Source of the DNA: an uncultured Actinomycetes bacterium
GTDB lineage: Bacteria; Actinomycetota; Thermoleophilia; Gaiellales; Gaiellaceae
Reading direction: 5' to 3'
Assembly (NCBI GenBank): GCA_963789895.1
Contig: CAWBMC010000002.1
Coordinates: 276,548-340,547 of the forward strand
DNA length: 64,000 nucleotides
The notes beneath the pieces are model-generated. The model had not been told where the DNA came from. It saw only the letters and a list, made by a program, of their open reading frames with translations, and did not search any database. Shown one piece after another: positions 3,576 through 40,801 of this stretch (positions are counted from its first letter, which is position 1; each line of letters opens with the position of its first letter). The translations under genes and the position numbers were made by a program.

Positions 3576-4003
3576 GCGCCCCCCTTCGACAGCAGCTCGA
3601 GGGCCTCTCGGTAGCCGTCGACACCCTTGCCGATCACGCGTGCAGTGGTCAGCCCTTCCAGAACCGAGTGCTGGCGCCACGTCTCGCGCTTCGTCACGTC
3701 CGAGATGTGCACCTCCACCACAGGCCCGTCGAACGGCTCGACCGCGTCGCGGATCGCCCACGAGTAGTGGGTCCAGGACGCGGGGTTGAGCACGAGCGCG
3801 TCGGCGCTGTCGAGAGCGGCATGGAGGAACTCGACGTACTCGCCTTCGTGGTTCGTCTGCCGGCAGCGCACCTGGAGATCGAGTGTGCGCGCCCAGGCGT
3901 AGATACGCGTCTCGAGATCCTGCAGCGAGTCCTCGCCGTAGAGGCCGGGGTCGCGGCGTCCGAGCAGGTCGAGGTTCACGCCGTTGAGGACATCGATCCG
4001 CAC
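3572..4003 (-). CDS. aroQ: Type II 3-dehydroquinate dehydratase
   Basis: LNGVNLDLLGRRDPGLYG, QTNHEGE, NPASWTHYS, EVHISD. Confidence 0.95.
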   Translation of the reverse strand: MRIDVLNGVNLDLLGRRDPGLYGEDSLQDLETRIYAWARTLDLQVRCRQTNHEGEYVEFLHAALDSADALVLNPASWTHYSWAIRDAVEPFDGPVVEVHISDVTKRETWRQHSVLEGLTTARVIGKGVDGYREALELLSKGGA

Positions 4004-4013
4004 CGGCGCGACT

Positions 4014-4442
4014 CTACTCGGCGCGGCCGGCGACGAGCGGCGACGCTGACCCCTCGCGGTGGACCGGAAGATGATCGGGAAACTCCTCCCACCCTGCTGC
4101 ACTGTCCGCGTGGATGTGGCGCATGACTCTCAGCCCAGCGTCGACGTCGAGTGCCCCGGCCGAGATAGAGACCCAGTCCGCGCCCGGACTGCTCCAGAAG
4201 AGCGACGAGCCGCAGGTGGAGCAGAACGATCGCTCGCGCTCGTTGTCGTCGAGGTACAGCGTCGGTACGACGTCGCCCAGCAGCGTGACGGCCGTCCGTG
4301 GTGCCCACGTGTACGCGGCCGCGTTGGTGCCCGCGCGCCGGCACAGCGAGCAGTGGCAGACGACGATGTCGCGGAGCGGCGGGTCGACCTCGAAGCGCAC
4401 GGCGCCGCAGAGGCAGCGACCAGGGACAGGCGCGCCGCTCAC
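4014..4442 (-). CDS. GFA (CENP-V/GFA) family Zn-binding protein
   Basis: GRCLCGAVRF, CHCSLCRR, RSFCSTCGSSLFW. Confidence 0.9.
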   Translation of the reverse strand: MSGAPVPGRCLCGAVRFEVDPPLRDIVVCHCSLCRRAGTNAAAYTWAPRTAVTLLGDVVPTLYLDDNERERSFCSTCGSSLFWSSPGADWVSISAGALDVDAGLRVMRHIHADSAAGWEEFPDHLPVHREGSASPLVAGRAE

Positions 4443-5884
4443 GAGGTGATCAGCTCGTCGAGCGCCGATCTGACATCCGCCTCGGGCAGCTCGACCCCCC
4501 AGCGCGGCTCACCCGGCGCGTCGAGCAGCACGAGACGCGGCCTCGCCCCTGCCGCCTTCTTGTCACGGCCGAGCGCCGCCCACGCGGCGTCGCGGTCGAG
4601 TCGCGGACGTTCCGGCGAGAGCACTCGCTCCACCGTGCGCCGTTCCTCCTCCAGACCCGACAGCCTGAGCGCGGCGAGCAGGCCGAGCGCGACCGCCTCG
4701 CCGTGTGGCAGGTCGTACCCTGCTGCGGCCTCGAGCGCGTGGGCGAAGGTGTGTCCGAGATTGAGCTGGTTCCGCGGCCCGCGATCGTATGGATCACGGA
4801 GGCAGACGGCGCCCTTGAAGGACGCGCAGCGGCGCACCTGCTCGTGCTCCGGGAGCTCCCAGAGCGGCTCACCGACGAGGAGACCCGTCTTCACGACCTC
4901 GGCGAGACCGTTTCGCCGCTCTCGGTCGGGCAGCGTCTCGAGCAGCGTCGGGTCGACCACCACACGTGCCGGCCAGTGGAAGCAGCCGGTGAGGTTCTTC
5001 GCGTGTGCGAGATCGATCGCGGTCTTGCCACCGATGGCGGCGTCGACCTGCCCGACGAGCGTCGTCGGCACGGGTACCCACGAGACACCGCGCATGTAGG
5101 TGGCGGCGGCAAACCCGGCCACATCGGTGGTCGCACCGCCGCCGAGGGCGACGACGACCCCGTCGCGGCCGATCGTGAAGCTCGACCAGAGCCGCTCCAG
5201 CACGGCCGGTGTCTTCGCAGGCTCTCCCTGCGGCACCTCGTGCACGCCGACATCTCGCGCGCCGAGTGCGAGCTGCGCGCGGACGCCGTGGATTCCCGCC
5301 ACGTGCTGGTCGACGACAACCTCGGCGGGACTGCCGCCGGGCACGAGATCGCCGAGAAGGTCGATCGCACCGACTTCGACGACGATGCCCGCCGCTGCGA
5401 GCACGACCGCCTCGGCCTCGTGTGCGCGCGCGTCGGCGACCTCCTCGTAGACGTCGCGCCGCGCTTCGAAGAGCTGGTGGAAGGCCGCTTCGTCCTGCGC
5501 CAGCGGGCGCTTCGCGCCGCGTGCCCGTTCCCACGCCGTCGCCGGATCGACGTCCAGAAGGACGGTGAAGGCCCGCTCGGCCAGGCGTGCGCGGGTTGCC
5601 TCAGAGACGACGGCGCCGCCGCCGAGCGCAACCACGATCGGCTCCGCCGCGGCGAGCGTCTCGCCGGCGACCTCCTCCTCGAGCGCCCGGAAGGCCGGTT
5701 CTCCGCGTGACGCGAAGAGCTCCGCCACGGGGGCTCCGGCGCGCCGCTCGATCTCCGCGTCGAGGTCGACGAAGGGGCGGCCGAGCCGCCGGGCCACGTC
5801 GACTGCCACGGTCGTCTTGCCCGCGCCCATGAACCCGGCGAGCGCGAGATGCCGTCCGAGCGCGTTCAGGCGGTCGGGCGCCAC
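4439..5884 (-). CDS. aroKB: Bifunctional shikimate kinase / 3-dehydroquinate synthase fusion (AroK-AroB)
   Basis: N-terminal GFMGAGKTT and ALGGG; C-terminal ALGGGATTDVAGFAAATYMRG, DAAIGGKTAID, LNLGHTFAHALE. Confidence 0.93.
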   Translation of the reverse strand: MAPDRLNALGRHLALAGFMGAGKTTVAVDVARRLGRPFVDLDAEIERRAGAPVAELFASRGEPAFRALEEEVAGETLAAAEPIVVALGGGAVVSEATRARLAERAFTVLLDVDPATAWERARGAKRPLAQDEAAFHQLFEARRDVYEEVADARAHEAEAVVLAAAGIVVEVGAIDLLGDLVPGGSPAEVVVDQHVAGIHGVRAQLALGARDVGVHEVPQGEPAKTPAVLERLWSSFTIGRDGVVVALGGGATTDVAGFAAATYMRGVSWVPVPTTLVGQVDAAIGGKTAIDLAHAKNLTGCFHWPARVVVDPTLLETLPDRERRNGLAEVVKTGLLVGEPLWELPEHEQVRRCASFKGAVCLRDPYDRGPRNQLNLGHTFAHALEAAAGYDLPHGEAVALGLLAALRLSGLEEERRTVERVLSPERPRLDRDAAWAALGRDKKAAGARPRLVLLDAPGEPRWGVELPEADVRSALDELITS

Positions 5885-35714: not shown

Positions 35715-38700
35715 TTACCGGTCGACGTCGACGATCTCGTCGACCGCCACATCTGTGAGGCGGGTCGTGCGACCGTCCGGGTAGCGCACCACCAGCTCCT
35801 GCACAGACGACGCGTCGCCGAGACCGAAGTGCGCGCGCGGATCCTCCGCCGACAGGTAGCTGCTGCCCGCATGCAGCTCGCGCACGAGCCGGCGGCCGTC
35901 GTCGAGCACGACCGTGATCCGCGCGCCCGGGGAGAACCGCGCCAGGCGCACCTCGAGCCAGTGCCCGGTGGCCCCAGTCGTCCGCAGCAGCACCAGCCGT
36001 CCGCCGATCGTGTTGATCGCGAAATCGAGATCGCCGTCGTTGTCGAAGTCGGCCGCTGCCAGACCCCGGCCGTTGAGGCGCGGTGACGGCCGCAACCCGA
36101 CCTGACGGCTCGCATCGACGAGAGTCCCCGCCTTGGTCTGCGCCACAACCTGGATCGGCCGCGCGTCGCGCTTCGGGTGCAGCACCGGGATGGCGCCGTT
36201 CGCGACGACGAGGTCGAGCCTGCCGTCCAGGTCGAGATCCGAGAACGACGCACCCCACCCGGTGGGGCTCGAACCGAGGGCCGCGACGAGCTCCGCCCGC
36301 GCGTCCGCGAACGTCGCGCCGCGCCCCCGGAAGACCGCATGGAGCTGCCCGCGGGAGTTCGTCACGAGCAGGTCAGGGCGCCCGTCGCCCGAGTAGTCGC
36401 CCACTGCGATCCCCATGCCGGCGTTCGGGTCGGCGACGCCCGCACGCTGCGCCCGATCCACGAGACGGAAGCCGAGCCCCGCCGGGTCCGCCTTCGCCCC
36501 GCCCGGCTGCGGCACGATCGAGTAGAGCCGGTTCGGATCGAGGTCGTTCGCGACGTACAGATCGAGCCGGCCGTCGCCGTGGAGGTCGGTGAACTCTGCG
36601 CCGAGGCTGTGGTCGAACGGTGCCTTGTCCAGCCCGGCCGCCCTGCCGACCTCACGGAACCGCGCCCGGCCCTTCGCGCCCGAGCCCACATTGAGGTAGA
36701 GCAGATCGCGCACACCGAGATGGTTGGCCGGGAACCCCTCGTCGGAGCCCTGCACCGGGAGGTTGTCCTCCGTGTACCCGCCGACGAAGAGGTCGGGGCG
36801 CCCGTCGCCGTTCACGTCCGCCACCGCTGCCCCCGTGTGCCAGCCCGAGGCGTTGATGCCGGCCGCGCGGGCGCCCTCCGAGAAGGTGCCGTCGCCGTTG
36901 TTCCACAGCAGCGCGTCGTAGCTGTCGGTCGGGACGTTGTACCCGGCGCTCGTCACGAACACGTCAGTCCGGCCATCCTGGTCGAGATCGGCCGCCACGC
37001 ATCCGTCGCCGCGCAGAGGGAGATCGGCATGCGAGGCAGCGCTGACGTCGACGAATCGCCCCCGCACGTTGTGGAAGAGCGCCGAGCGCGGCAGCCCGCC
37101 GTGCTGCTCCCATGTCGCGTAGTCCGCGTCGGAGTACGAGTTGACGACGAACAGGTCGAGCCACCCGTCGTTGTCGTAGTCGAGCCAGCAGAGCCCGCCG
37201 CCCATCATCGCCGTCCGATCCAGGCTCACCCCGTAGCGGAACACCCCCTGCCGGAAGCCGAGTCCGACCTGGGCTGCGACATCCTGGAGCTTCAGGCCCT
37301 CGAACCCGGACGCGTGGCGATCATCGGTCGAGCCGGAGGCCAGCGACGGCGCAGCACCCGCGGGCGCCGCGCCACGCGAGTCGACGATCACGTAGCGCCG
37401 GCCCTGCAAGATGAGCTCGAGCGTCTGTGCGAAGGGCGCCGGATCGCTCCGTTGGACAGCCTTCGCCGGTGACCCGGCATAGGTGACGACTCCCAGTGTC
37501 CCCTGCAGAGCGGCGACGACGAGCGGCGGCCCCTGACCGTCACCGGGCTCGAGCGTCAGCCGCAGCCGCTCGACGCGATAGGTCGGGACGGCGATCGGCG
37601 CGCCCTTCGCCTCGAGGATCCGTTGCAGCAGGCCAGCGAGCCATTCACCGTTCGCACCAACCGCAGCGCGGGTGACACTCCGCCGCCGCAGCGCCTCGCT
37701 TCCGGCCGCGAGGTCGGCGACGAGGTCGCGCGCGATGCGGAGCGACATGGGCCGGCCGATCTTCGATGCGACCACGCTCGACGGCGCCACCGTCACCACC
37801 GGCAGCGAGCGTGCCGACTCGACGGGAACGATCGCAGCTGCCTCCGCGCTCGACCGGGCCGGGATGCCCGCGAGCACGAGCAACCCGACGAAACCGACGG
37901 CGCCCGCAAGTGCCGCCGCCCCCATGACGACACGCCTCGCCGCGCCCGTGCCGAGGTCGCCGCCGAGCCTGGCCGCACGCGCGACGACCAATCGCTCCAC
38001 GAACGGGCGCGCGAGGCAGACGAGCGCCAGCGCACCGAGCACTGCGACCTTGCTCGCGAACTCGGTCGTCTGCGGGGCGATCAGCAGCACCGCGAGCAGG
38101 CCCACGCCGATCGCGTAGACGCGGCGTCCGGTGCGCCCGTCCGGGACGGTCTTGGGGTCGGTGATCATGAAGAACAGGAAGACGAGGATCTCCGGGGAGG
38201 TGACGAGCACCCACCAGAAGCTCCAACCCGTGATCGGGCCCAGGTGCCAGCGAGCGGTCATCTCGTGCCCACTCGCCGCGAGCACGGCCATCCCGGTGGC
38301 AAACGCGACCCAGAACCAGATCGCGATCGACAGCAGGTGCAGCCGGAGGAGGATCGCAAAGCCGCCCGCGACGATGATCACCAGCGCCAGCACGAGCCAC
38401 GGCGAGAACGGGGCCCACCAGAACTCGAGCGGGTCGGCGTGCGCCGACCCGAGCAGCAGGAAGCAGAGCACGAGGCCGAAGTTCGACGGGTTGAAGATGT
38501 GGCGGCCCCGGTAGCGGATCACGTACTTCGAGAGCAGCGCCACGGCGGCGGTCGCCGCGAAGATCCAGGCGCCGTTCATGCTCCACCAGTCGCCGTGCTT
38601 CGTCCCGGGCACGCGGAGGATGAACGCGACGCCGTTCCCCGTCAGCAACGCGCTCGCCGGCCACAGGATCACGTGCTGGCGCGAGAACGCGATCCCGACC

Positions 38701-38909
38701 TCGAGCACCGCACATGTGACGAGCGCCACGAGGATCTGGGCGATCGAGAGCCGAAAATGGAACGCCACCTGGCCGAGCACCTGCAGCGACACGATCACGA
38801 CGGCCAGGTGCAGACGCGGGTCGCGCCAGGTCGGCAGCAACACCGGGTACGGCGTGCCACGGATCCGTAGCGTCGGCCTGCCGACACCGGCTAGGGCAGG
38901 CGCGCTCAT
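35715..38909 (-). CDS. Fusion of an RnfD/NqrB-like (UnbU-type) membrane domain and a CRTAC1/FG-GAP-ASPIC/UnbV domain
   Basis: SALLTG, SKYVIRYRGRHIFNPSNFG, FFMITDPKT; then DYDNDGWLDL-type repeats, RGLAAADFDNDGDLD, GSSYLS..HFGLG. Confidence 0.88.
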   Translation of the reverse strand: MSAPALAGVGRPTLRIRGTPYPVLLPTWRDPRLHLAVVIVSLQVLGQVAFHFRLSIAQILVALVTCAVLEVGIAFSRQHVILWPASALLTGNGVAFILRVPGTKHGDWWSMNGAWIFAATAAVALLSKYVIRYRGRHIFNPSNFGLVLCFLLLGSAHADPLEFWWAPFSPWLVLALVIIVAGGFAILLRLHLLSIAIWFWVAFATGMAVLAASGHEMTARWHLGPITGWSFWWVLVTSPEILVFLFFMITDPKTVPDGRTGRRVYAIGVGLLAVLLIAPQTTEFASKVAVLGALALVCLARPFVERLVVARAARLGGDLGTGAARRVVMGAAALAGAVGFVGLLVLAGIPARSSAEAAAIVPVESARSLPVVTVAPSSVVASKIGRPMSLRIARDLVADLAAGSEALRRRSVTRAAVGANGEWLAGLLQRILEAKGAPIAVPTYRVERLRLTLEPGDGQGPPLVVAALQGTLGVVTYAGSPAKAVQRSDPAPFAQTLELILQGRRYVIVDSRGAAPAGAAPSLASGSTDDRHASGFEGLKLQDVAAQVGLGFRQGVFRYGVSLDRTAMMGGGLCWLDYDNDGWLDLFVVNSYSDADYATWEQHGGLPRSALFHNVRGRFVDVSAASHADLPLRGDGCVAADLDQDGRTDVFVTSAGYNVPTDSYDALLWNNGDGTFSEGARAAGINASGWHTGAAVADVNGDGRPDLFVGGYTEDNLPVQGSDEGFPANHLGVRDLLYLNVGSGAKGRARFREVGRAAGLDKAPFDHSLGAEFTDLHGDGRLDLYVANDLDPNRLYSIVPQPGGAKADPAGLGFRLVDRAQRAGVADPNAGMGIAVGDYSGDGRPDLLVTNSRGQLHAVFRGRGATFADARAELVAALGSSPTGWGASFSDLDLDGRLDLVVANGAIPVLHPKRDARPIQVVAQTKAGTLVDASRQVGLRPSPRLNGRGLAAADFDNDGDLDFAINTIGGRLVLLRTTGATGHWLEVRLARFSPGARITVVLDDGRRLVRELHAGSSYLSAEDPRAHFGLGDASSVQELVVRYPDGRTTRLTDVAVDEIVDVDR

Positions 38910-38954
38910 CGAGCATTCATGGTACTGAGGCGACGTCGACGGGAGAGATTTTGC

Positions 38955-38982
38955 TCAGGTGAGCGCGTCTGCCAGCCGATAC
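38955..38982 (+). promoter_or_regulatory. Putative sigma28/WhiG-type promoter
   Basis: TCAG-N16-GCCGATAC, ending 7 nt before the GTG at 38990. Confidence 0.6.
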
Positions 38983-38989
38983 AGGGATC

Positions 38990-39274
38990 GTGACGGCAAC
39001 GGACCTGGATCCGCGCCTGCTTCCGGACGACGAGCTCGGAGCGCTCTTGACGGAGCTCGGCGACGAGGAGAAGCAGCTCTCGAAGCGCCGCGACGCCCTG
39101 CACCGGCGCATCGACTTCGTCCGCGCCGGCGGCGGCGGCCACGAGGACGCCTCCACCGAGCTGCTCGAGTCGCTCACCGGCGAGGAGAGCTACGTCTCGA
39201 AGGAGCGCCAGGCGCTGCAACGGCGCATCGATCTTCTCCGCTCCGAGCAGCTCCGGCGCCACGCCACGCGCTGA
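38990..39274 (+). CDS. rsiG: RsiG (AmfC)-like c-di-GMP-binding anti-sigma factor with twin motifs
   Basis: EKQLSKRRDALHRRID and ESYVSKERQALQRRID match E-X3-S-X2-R-X3-(Q/H)-X3-D twice. Confidence 0.8.
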   Translation: MTATDLDPRLLPDDELGALLTELGDEEKQLSKRRDALHRRIDFVRAGGGGHEDASTELLESLTGEESYVSKERQALQRRIDLLRSEQLRRHATR

Positions 39275-39281
39275 CGCCGCG

Positions 39282-40801
39282 TCAGGCCGCGGTCACGAGC
39301 TCGGCCACCAGCGGCGCCGTGTCGAGCGGGTCGAACCCGATCCGGGCCGCGATCTCCTCCGACGACGGGCGCGTCCCTTCGAGGAAGAGGCCGCGCAGGA
39401 GCTCGCCCGTCCGTGGGCGCCGCCACCAGTCCGGTGCCACCTCGCTTCGGAGCCAGACGCGGAGCTGCGCCGAGCGCACCCAGGCGCGGAGGTAGTCGGC
39501 CGAGTAGAAGCCGGAGTCCATGTCGGCCAGGTGGTTCTCTTCCGGGTAGGCGACGCCGGTCGCGGCGGTCAGGCGCTCTGCGTAGCCCTCGGACGTGCCG
39601 CCGTCGTCGCCGAAGCGGTGCCAGAAGTCGAGCTCGAAGCCGAGCTTGGCCGAGTAGCGCCTGAAGAGCAGCGCGTTGACGAAGCCTGCGGCAGCGGCGT
39701 GCTCGATGCGCCTCCGTCTCGCCGAGCCCGAAGTGCTCGGCGTGCCAGCCCGGCTCACGGACGATCGAGTCGAGCAGGAACGAGTAGATCTCGGTCAGCG
39801 CGTGGTCGCGGGACAGCCGCCGGTACGCGTACGGAAGCGCCGGATCGCAGCCCGCGTAGTGCAGCGCGTGACCGGCCTCGTGGAGAAAGGCCTCGTAGTC
39901 GTGCAGGCCGCCCTGCGCGCGGGTGATGAGATGCACGAGCCGCGGCGGGTCCGAGGGGATGACACACGCGCGCGGCGACTTCTGCGGCCGGTCGTCGAGG
40001 TCGAGCCGGATGCCGCTCGCGGCTTCGAGGTCGAGGCCGAGCGCGTCGAGTGTGGCGCTGCACACCGGCACCGATCGCTCGCGCGTGTACGTCGTCTCGA
40101 GCGGTGACAGCCGTCGCAGCCACGCCACGTGCGCGAACGACGGGATTGCAGCGCGCTCCTCTCCGAGGAGGCGGTCGAACCACCGGTCGCGTGCCGTCGT
40201 GTAGGCGGCGGTCGTCGCCTCGCGCGTGGCGTCGAGCACCTCGAGCAGAGGCGCGAGCGCGATTCCCTTCTCCGCCTCGTTGCGCGCCACCGGGTTCGCC
40301 TCGCCGGAGAGCTCGGCAGCGAGCTCCTCGTGCGCCGCCAGGAGCGACCTCCGGTCGTCGTTGAACGACGCGGACACCTGCAGCCCCACGGCGCCGAGCT
40401 CGTCCCGCTCGGCGTACGAGACAAGCGTCGCGAGACGCGCTTGAGCGCGTGCGCAACGGCAGCTCCTCCCCCTGCCACGGGACACGGGCCGCGAGGAGCG
40501 CGTTCTCGAGCGCGTCGTCGCGCTCTGCCAGCTCGCGTACGAGGATGCCGCCCTCGCACATGAGCCGCAGCCTCGTCAGCCTCTCCCGGCCGTCGTCGGC
40601 GACCTCCGTCTCGTCGTGCGCGAGCGCGTCGAGCTGCTCCCGCGTGAAGAGATCCTCGTAGCGGGCGACGATCGCCGCTTGCTCCGACGTCTCCTTCTCC
40701 CCCACCCGCACCGCGCGTGACTCCTCGGAGCGCTCGAAGAGATACGCGGCGAGGCGCTCCTCGAACGCGTCCGCGCCGCGTACTTTGTGGTGATTCACCA
40801 C
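39282..40801 (-). CDS. Gluzincin metallopeptidase (M3/M32-like); frameshifts near 40445 and 39710
   Basis: RPQKSPRAC, LHEAGHALH (HExxH), downstream TEIYSF, YSADY; coding split across three frames. Confidence 0.75.

Follow-up and report, generated by a model that had tools for sequence, protein, structure and literature searches.

The pair formed by the anti-sigma factor RsiG and the sigma factor WhiG is described as the sole known sigma/anti-sigma pair that is targeted by c-di-GMP (PMC8325347). The RsiG of S. venezuelae (also known as AmfC; PDB 6PFJ and 6PFV) is a monomeric anti-sigma factor of WhiG that carries two c-di-GMP motifs in a single chain, and the RsiGs of R. radiotolerans, Conexibacter and Thermoleophilum (PDB 7LQ2-7LQ4) are homodimers of a chain with one motif; the evolution of the family has been told as a transition from the single-motif dimer to the twin-motif monomer. 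In a PNAS paper of 2021 and a preprint of 2026 (10.64898/2026.01.14.699351), reciprocal best hits led to one RsiG per genome, with one second copy in Acidothermus. The gene that we analyze here lies in a 64-kb stretch of DNA (the whole of this stretch is hereinafter denoted the window) and encodes a compact paralogue of this anti-sigma factor that retains both c-di-GMP motifs.

The 94-residue protein and its family

The mini RsiG-like gene (Table 1) reads from a GTG codon which, in the open reading frame, is the earliest usable start downstream of an in-frame TGA (38960-38962). The earlier note on this DNA had described a 94-aa protein with twin motifs on either side of a GGGG turn, and we were able to verify both the coordinates and the motifs in the sequence, each of the latter preserving the intact pattern E-x3-S-x2-R-x3-(H/Q)-x3-D. 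The assignment of this minimal hairpin to the RsiG family, also made in that note, is borne out by several kinds of evidence. The HMM search which the note had called for yields a match to the Pfam RsiG profile (PF22802) above the cut-off (48.5 bits against 27; E 6.9e-13, in two stretches). A search of the PDB with the profile of the mini family retrieves, at E <0.1, RsiG chains only, namely those of R. radiotolerans (7LQ2-4, E 2.3e-9) and S. venezuelae (6PFJ/6PFV, 2e-8). Furthermore, the motif residues are invariant among the close homologues, and a hairpin is predicted by AlphaFold2. In the NCBIfam collection, nothing meaningful was found for this protein, an FtsL domain scoring below the threshold (18.8 bits, the cut-off being 55). 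The possibility of a spurious open reading frame at 38990-39274 is ruled out by the conservation of the protein and by the invariant motifs. A longer N-terminus, such as is annotated in some of the homologues, is likewise ruled out by the in-frame TGA at 38960, the conservation upstream of the start being that of DNA and not of protein.

Table 1. Features of the mini RsiG-like gene, its surroundings and two related loci elsewhere in the genome (window coordinates unless a contig is given)
Feature	Position	Strand	Basis or remark
Divergent neighbour, 1064 aa: RnfD-like membrane domain (sub-threshold), FG-GAP repeats, UnbV/ASPIC C-terminus	35715-38909	-	Domain search
-35 element, sigma-28/WhiG-type: CTCA 38954-38957 (= TCAG 38955-38958)	38954-38958	+	Sequence; conserved in orthologous loci
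-10 element, sigma-28/WhiG-type: GCCGATAC	38975-38982	+	Sequence; ends 7 nt 5' of the GTG
Mini RsiG-like CDS, 94 aa	38990-39274	+	GTG start, TGA stop (39272-39274)
N-terminal segment, residues 5-16 (D-L...L...E-L), ahead of helix 1	39002-39037	+	Aligned to R. radiotolerans RsiG residues 37-48 (PDB 7LQ4)
c-di-GMP motif 1 on helix 1, residues 27-42: E27, S31, R34, H38, D42	39068-39115	+	Sequence and conservation
GGGG turn joining the helices, residues 47-50	39128-39139	+	Sequence; the predicted non-helical stretch is 49-51
c-di-GMP motif 2 on helix 2, residues 66-81: E66, S70, R73, Q77, D81	39185-39232	+	Sequence and conservation
Three long overlapping ORFs in different frames, convergent on the mini gene	39190-40801	-	No Pfam match
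Canonical RsiG, 165 aa, two perfect motifs	G000:C2:176109-176606 (outside the window; L001:1234-1731)	+	124.6 bits to PF22802
Group-2-like sigma-70 factor (regions 1.2-4)	G000:C2:183886-184776	-	CTCA-N17-GCCGATA at about C2:184785-184812, 7 nt from the GTG

The AlphaFold2 model, obtained with an alignment of 112 sequences, is a helical hairpin that consists of helices 13-48 and 52-93 (mean pLDDT 90.7, pTM 0.74). Going by this prediction, the 94-aa protein would possess the antiparallel coiled coil that is central to the RsiG family. When the predicted hairpin is compared with the PDB using Foldseek, there is no match at E<=1e-3, and just generic helical hairpins are retrieved; the top query-normalised TM-score, 0.82, is that of S. 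venezuelae RsiG (6pfv_B), with E-values that are weak throughout. Of the parts beyond the coiled coil with which RsiG touches sigma-2 and sigma-4, the N-terminal segment is kept and the long loop is absent; the C-terminal sigma-4-binding helix is absent as well because just 13 residues follow motif 2.

This protein is not an isolated case but one of a large family of twin-helix proteins of about 70-130 aa. A word-based search returned 25 close homologues (68-89% identity), mostly of 94 aa and mostly beginning at the equivalent GTG or ATG, among which all motif residues, the Gly turn and the residues D7, L11, E15 and L16 are invariant. In an exhaustive profile search over 1.84 billion cluster representatives, 240 clusters (at 50% identity) matched the mini family with E<=1e-3. 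Among the best 150 of these 240 clusters, the majority are represented by proteins within the size range given above, in which a single stretch matches across both helices. Two strict motifs are found in 71 of 148 representatives, and the spacing from motif to motif is mostly 37-40 residues in the mini family (39 in the present protein), compared to 60-101 for the long RsiGs that this search also retrieved. Across 112 members of the family, motif 1 retains the E in 99%, the S in 99%, the R in 100%, the H/Q in 98% and the D in 81% of the sequences (with E in another 11%); the respective values for motif 2 are 96%, 97%, 100%, 100% and 74% (again with E in another 11%). The glycines at positions 47 and 48 are kept in 70-77% of this wider set, and the N-terminal D7 and L11 in 69% and 70%, respectively. 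The conserved features that are particular to the mini family include a phenylalanine after the Asp of motif 1 and the lack of a glycine after the His. In the ESM Atlas, there are clusters of 79-113-aa proteins under the automatic name 'RsiG-like domain-containing protein'. Our search of the literature turned up no paper in which the term 'RsiG-like' is used and none describing a mini RsiG hairpin, so that a family of compact RsiG paralogues with a WhiG-type promoter of its own is apparently undescribed in the searchable literature.

Turning to the genomic surroundings, the start region of the divergent 1064-aa neighbour is also located upstream of the mini gene in two of the compared loci (L012 and L039) and is absent in two others (L011 and L026). 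One of the three convergent open reading frames on the other side contains an HExxH-like sequence, HEAGH; these frames could be either a frameshifted metallopeptidase-like gene or an artefact of ORF calling in high-GC DNA.

Coexistence with canonical RsiG and the origin of the mini form

The earlier note proposed that the mini protein is this lineage's own, stripped-down RsiG, which would have to be either an intermediate on the path from the single-motif to the twin-motif form or the product of a fresh, independent duplication. Such a reading derives some appeal from the combination of small size with two motifs, as well as from the presence of true single-motif RsiGs, the type known from Thermoleophilia and Rubrobacteria, in sister families of the same order; nevertheless, it now appears highly improbable. 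It is largely refuted by the gene content of the source genome, and the distribution of the mini form and the relationships between the helices also speak against it.

To begin with, a canonical RsiG resides in the same genome. The source assembly (2.54 Mb in 2 contigs, 74% complete) contains a second RsiG locus, with two RsiG matches in a single frame that are much stronger (68.5 and 65.9 bits). This is the gene for the 165-aa protein of Table 1, which is flanked by a CDP-alcohol-phosphatidyltransferase-like gene and by FHA-domain and MerR-family genes, and the long form of RsiG is present in 21 of the 24 congeners. The second half of the canonical protein, including its C-terminal tail, looks like the single-motif RsiGs of the sister families.

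The distribution of the mini form does not fit the note's proposal either. Used as the query, the mini protein has matches in 43 of the 110 species of the genus; a close orthologue (81-83% identity) is present in only 3 of the 109 other species, and the remaining matches are paralogues (37-50% identity) which are scattered patchily, in up to four copies per genome, sometimes in tandem. In every sampled genome that bears a mini form, the long RsiG accompanies it. In a draw of 300 genomes from the phylum, which included about 20 genomes of the same class, the strong two-helix matches are confined to this genus; a weak match of a single helix in one unpublished genome (G540) is given no weight in our conclusions. 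Tandem pairs of diverged mini-RsiG-like genes were noticed in several genomes and metagenome contigs, including L043 (at about 3900-4700), L041 and L044, and also at G133:C7:872830-873421 and G267:C5:785193-785774; in L043, each copy of the tandem has one GCCGATA element.

Within the same order, two sister families (f4 and f5) have true single-motif RsiGs of about 85-95 aa, measured from the probable start codon, that are extended at the C-terminus, and three others (f1-f3) have long twin-motif RsiGs (L071-L081, genomes G025-G040); in the twin RsiG of f3, the second half resembles the single-motif protein. The occurrence of single-motif and twin-motif RsiGs within one order may bear on the site of the internal duplication in the family.

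The relationships between the helices were analyzed using 38-residue segments cut around each motif. Helix 1 of the mini proteins forms one class and helix 2 another, both at nearly equal distances from helix 1 of the long form, helix 2 of the long form and the single-motif helices, and the two mini helices are no more like each other than either of them is like the long or single helices. The helices of the long and single-motif forms are closer to each other and have in common a Gly after the His, which the mini forms lack. In the maximum-likelihood tree of the helices, separate starred clades (SH-aLRT 96) hold 15 of the 18 rows for mini helix 1 and the full 18 for mini helix 2, the long and single helices being intermixed, although with its 38 columns this tree is too short to tell whether the mini and long forms share a duplication. 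As far as such short alignments can indicate, this topology argues against a recent independent duplication and equally against an intermediate position of the mini form. Nor is the mini protein an ordinary twin RsiG acquired from Actinomycetia, the outcome that the earlier note had named as contradicting its view. Given that the mini form coexists with the canonical protein, paralogy, and not internal duplication alone, would have contributed to the diversity of the RsiG family.

The promoter, the sigma factor and the predicted regulon

The suggestion, in the earlier note, of a WhiG/sigma28-type promoter placed so as to yield a leaderless transcript has gained considerably from comparison with other genomes. 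The promoter can be read as TCAG-N16-GCCGATAC or as CTCA-N17-GCCGATAC, the two readings together spanning 38954-38982, and it fits both published forms of the actinobacterial WhiG consensus, T(A/C)AA-N16-GCCGATAA and CTCA-N16-17-GCCGA (10.64898/2026.01.14.699351). With the -10 element only 7 nt away from the start codon, the mini transcript is predicted to be leaderless, its 5' end falling at 38990 or 1-2 nt from it. On its own, a single promoter-like match in the 64-kb window is insignificant, with 0.72 expected when one mismatch is allowed. The evidence comes from the conservation of its position and from the genome-wide enrichment of the motif in its exact form. Each of the nine distinct loci with an orthologue (51-83% identity at the protein level) has CTCA(G/C)G and (G/A)CCGATA(A/C/G) at a fixed position, separated by a 15-nt variable spacer and followed by a gap of 7-8 nt to the GTG, within upstream DNA that has otherwise diverged to the point of being unalignable. 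Among the diverged paralogues, TCA(A/G) or CTCA-N15-17-GCCGATA is frequent just upstream of the gene. Within the interval from -100 to +30, GCCGATA occurs in 18 of 32 distinct mini-RsiG-like genes versus 0.1 expected from the genome density; these counts, like that of the nine loci, overstate the independence of the observations since orthologous promoters share descent. Neither a sigma-70-type promoter nor an intrinsic terminator was detected near the mini gene, and no WhiG-type promoter element was found upstream of canonical rsiG in the same genome.

So is the cognate sigma factor there? In the 74%-complete assembly, no FliA_WhiG match rises above the cut-off, and the four best matches (<=116 bits) are group 1/2 sigma factors. 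Formally, this is the absence of a sigma-28 gene which the earlier note had listed as evidence against its proposal; the assembly, however, is incomplete, and whiG is present in 20 of the 24 congeners (206-293 bits, most near 290), including G019, the species with the 83%-identical mini orthologue, whose WhiG matches that of S. venezuelae with 288 bits. We infer that the absence of whiG from the present assembly is most simply accounted for if the gene lies in the quarter of the genome that the assembly lacks. The alignment of the WhiG proteins of the genus keeps both the K-x3-G-R motif, which provides c-di-GMP contacts, and the T-L-x2-Y-E-x-L motif, which provides RsiG contacts. A conserved sequence, ACGGCGTATTCT, is located upstream of whiG in six congener loci (L056, L013, L016, L057, L060 and L063), ending 5-8 nt before the predicted whiG start in four of them and about 45-50 nt before it in L016 and L060; this may be a housekeeping-type -10 element, with a leader that is short or absent in the first four loci.

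On the scale of the whole genome, CTCA-N16-17-GCCGATA occurs 11 times, compared to about 0.7-1.4 occurrences expected. Of the 17 matches to a slightly wider pattern, 8 are followed by an ORF (>=60 aa) whose start codon lies at a distance of exactly 7 nt from the -10 element, and in 2 more this distance is 8 nt, so that leaderless transcripts are seemingly the rule in the predicted regulon. The genes downstream of the motif encode PilB (T2SSE and MshEN domains), PilT, a GGDEF-EAL protein, an HD-GYP-type protein with MASE3, a LuxR-type regulator and a group-2-like sigma factor. The DGC/PDE and pilus genes which the earlier note had recommended looking for are thus present, several of them behind WhiG-type promoters, and by virtue of its own WhiG-type promoter the mini gene would join the genes for the type IV pilus ATPases and for the enzymes of c-di-GMP turnover in one predicted regulon. 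The same mix of type IV pilus and DGC/PDE genes is reported for the WhiG regulon of R. radiotolerans (PMC8325347). The source genome has 12 GGDEF domains; no FlhA was found in it, at 74% completeness. The loci of the predicted regulon include, in the source genome (G000), C2:233822, C2:1139533-1140705, C2:1014395-1016386, C2:665777-667171 and C1:286914, where the start codon typically lies exactly 7 nt past GCCGATAN.

Orthologous promoters are also detectable in congeners, with 8 matches in G019 (none in the reversed-pattern control) and 9 in G004 (2 in the control). The two WhiG-less genomes of the order that were searched contain 2 and 0 motif matches, and G012, a congener that does have WhiG, contains a single match, with no enrichment of the exact motif. 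The promoter of the group-2-like sigma gene is located about 7 kb from the long rsiG here, and in G019, G004 and G012 the same sequence is again found at 6-8 kb from this gene, a recurrence that suggests a putative cascade from WhiG to a second sigma factor. In practical terms, the leaderless layout, with the -10 element followed by 7 nt, is a convenient criterion by which WhiG targets could be predicted in lineages that are uncultured.

Possible role and comparison with known systems

What, then, might the mini protein do? A WhiG-type promoter in front of the gene points to a feedback loop in the RsiG-WhiG circuit. In the scenario that we favor, the gene would be transcribed into a leaderless mRNA from a promoter read by WhiG, such that synthesis of the protein would require free WhiG, as is available once c-di-GMP has fallen and canonical RsiG has released the sigma factor; the mini protein would then bind c-di-GMP and feed back on the RsiG-(c-di-GMP)2-WhiG switch. 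Its likeliest mode of action would be that of a second, inducible c-di-GMP-dependent inhibitor by which WhiG is re-captured through its sigma-2 domain. The individual links in this chain differ in strength. Binding of c-di-GMP, which in the RsiG family takes place as an intercalated dimer of the nucleotide, is likely because the motifs are conserved; the dependence of transcription on WhiG, the contact with WhiG and the sign of the feedback are points that we infer, each separately; and the negative feedback on the cognate sigma factor that the earlier note envisaged is plausible. The whole chain, in which a WhiG-induced, c-di-GMP-dependent inhibitor re-captures WhiG mainly via sigma-2 and so closes a negative feedback, is put forward tentatively, with somewhat less than even confidence.

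The emphasis on sigma-2 comes from the parts of RsiG that the mini protein has kept and lost. According to the crystal structure paper (7LQ4), D39 of R. radiotolerans RsiG contacts R43 and N47 in the sigma-2 domain of WhiG, and in the alignment with the PDB sequence D7 of the mini protein is the equivalent of D39. The retention of this residue together with the loss of the loop and of the sigma-4 helix favors an inhibitor that would act mainly via sigma-2; at the same time, because the sigma-4-binding regions of both solved complexes are absent, full anti-sigma activity is uncertain.

The same losses can be interpreted in the opposite sense, namely that the hairpin binds the nucleotide but not WhiG and competes for c-di-GMP with canonical RsiG, thereby locking the switch in the WhiG-ON state, with a bistable positive feedback as the outcome. 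This would suit a protein that has both motifs intact but neither the loop nor the C-terminal parts for binding sigma-4, whose gene has a WhiG-type promoter and which occurs in several copies per genome, some of them in tandem, as might be expected of a dosage or buffering role; moreover, RsiG proteins alone do bind c-di-GMP with micromolar affinity. Yet the Kd of free RsiG, 6-25 uM, is roughly 7-17 times weaker than that of the ternary complex with WhiG, so that a sink of this kind would require high expression, and the N-terminal D-L...L segment, the sigma-2 contact in the R. radiotolerans complex, is conserved even though it is unneeded for nucleotide binding. We consider a c-di-GMP sink unlikely, if still a serious contender. 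It is, in our assessment, rather improbable that the mini protein serves as a c-di-GMP adaptor for some other partner, be it the group-2-like sigma factor with the WhiG-type promoter, canonical RsiG itself or a component of the pilus: no gene neighbour or operon partner is conserved, the upstream flank itself being common to only some of the loci, and WhiG is the sole known partner of any RsiG-family protein. What speaks for an adaptor is that the mini proteins form an old clade, distinct from the others and marked by conserved features of its own, that canonical RsiG is always found alongside it in the genomes sampled and that the sigma gene driven by the WhiG-type promoter is conserved near the long rsiG.

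Returning to the favored scenario of an inducible inhibitor, and leaving aside the choice between the two signs of the feedback, a broader generalization could be entertained, although we are inclined to doubt it: the mini twin-motif hairpins might represent a so far undescribed architecture, the third within the RsiG family, that adds to the circuit either a negative layer, with WhiG re-captured via sigma-2 only, or a positive one, with c-di-GMP titrated off canonical RsiG, and in which the geometry of the nucleotide site may differ from that in the known complexes. With about 80 structured residues, the mini protein would be the smallest natural scaffold for an RsiG-type c-di-GMP site.

Among the systems described so far, S. 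venezuelae RsiG has the same overall plan as the mini protein: both belong to one Pfam family and carry twin motifs on antiparallel helices of one chain, helix 1 of the mini protein has a His, as is the case in many homologues, and the predicted hairpin superposes on the coiled coil with the query-normalised TM-score given above. The crystallised S. venezuelae chain, however, has 176 aa, compared to the 94 aa of the mini protein: a long loop shields c-di-GMP and contacts WhiG, in place of which the mini protein has a Gly turn of 3-4 residues, and C-terminal helices engage sigma-4, which have no counterpart in the mini protein. Furthermore, the mini protein is a paralogue encoded beside canonical RsiG, under a WhiG-type promoter of its own that canonical rsiG lacks in this genome.

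The single-motif RsiGs, for their part, include the best sequence match in the PDB, that of R. radiotolerans, and share with the mini protein the similar small size and the N-terminal D-L..L..E-L segment; type IV pilus and DGC/PDE genes are part of the predicted WhiG regulon in the source organism as they are in R. radiotolerans. In contrast to these proteins, the mini form has two motifs per chain, so that no dimer would be required to form the antiparallel pair, and the Gly-linked C-terminal helix by which the single-motif form binds sigma-4 is missing. In 7LQ4, the two central guanines are read by the two R66 side chains, for which R34 and R73 are the candidate counterparts in the mini protein. 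The Gly that follows the Q/H in the single and long forms alike is absent from the mini form.

In terms of circuit logic, an analogy is offered by FlgM, the small flagellar anti-sigma-28 factor that is controlled by secretion and whose own gene has a sigma-28-dependent promoter, so that feedback is built into the system. FlgM and the mini protein have no relationship in sequence or fold, and secretion is the control in the one case and c-di-GMP would be in the other; the likeness, which is purely an analogy, is that in both cases a small protein inhibits, or in the case of the mini protein would inhibit, the sigma-28-family factor that drives, or would drive, its own gene.
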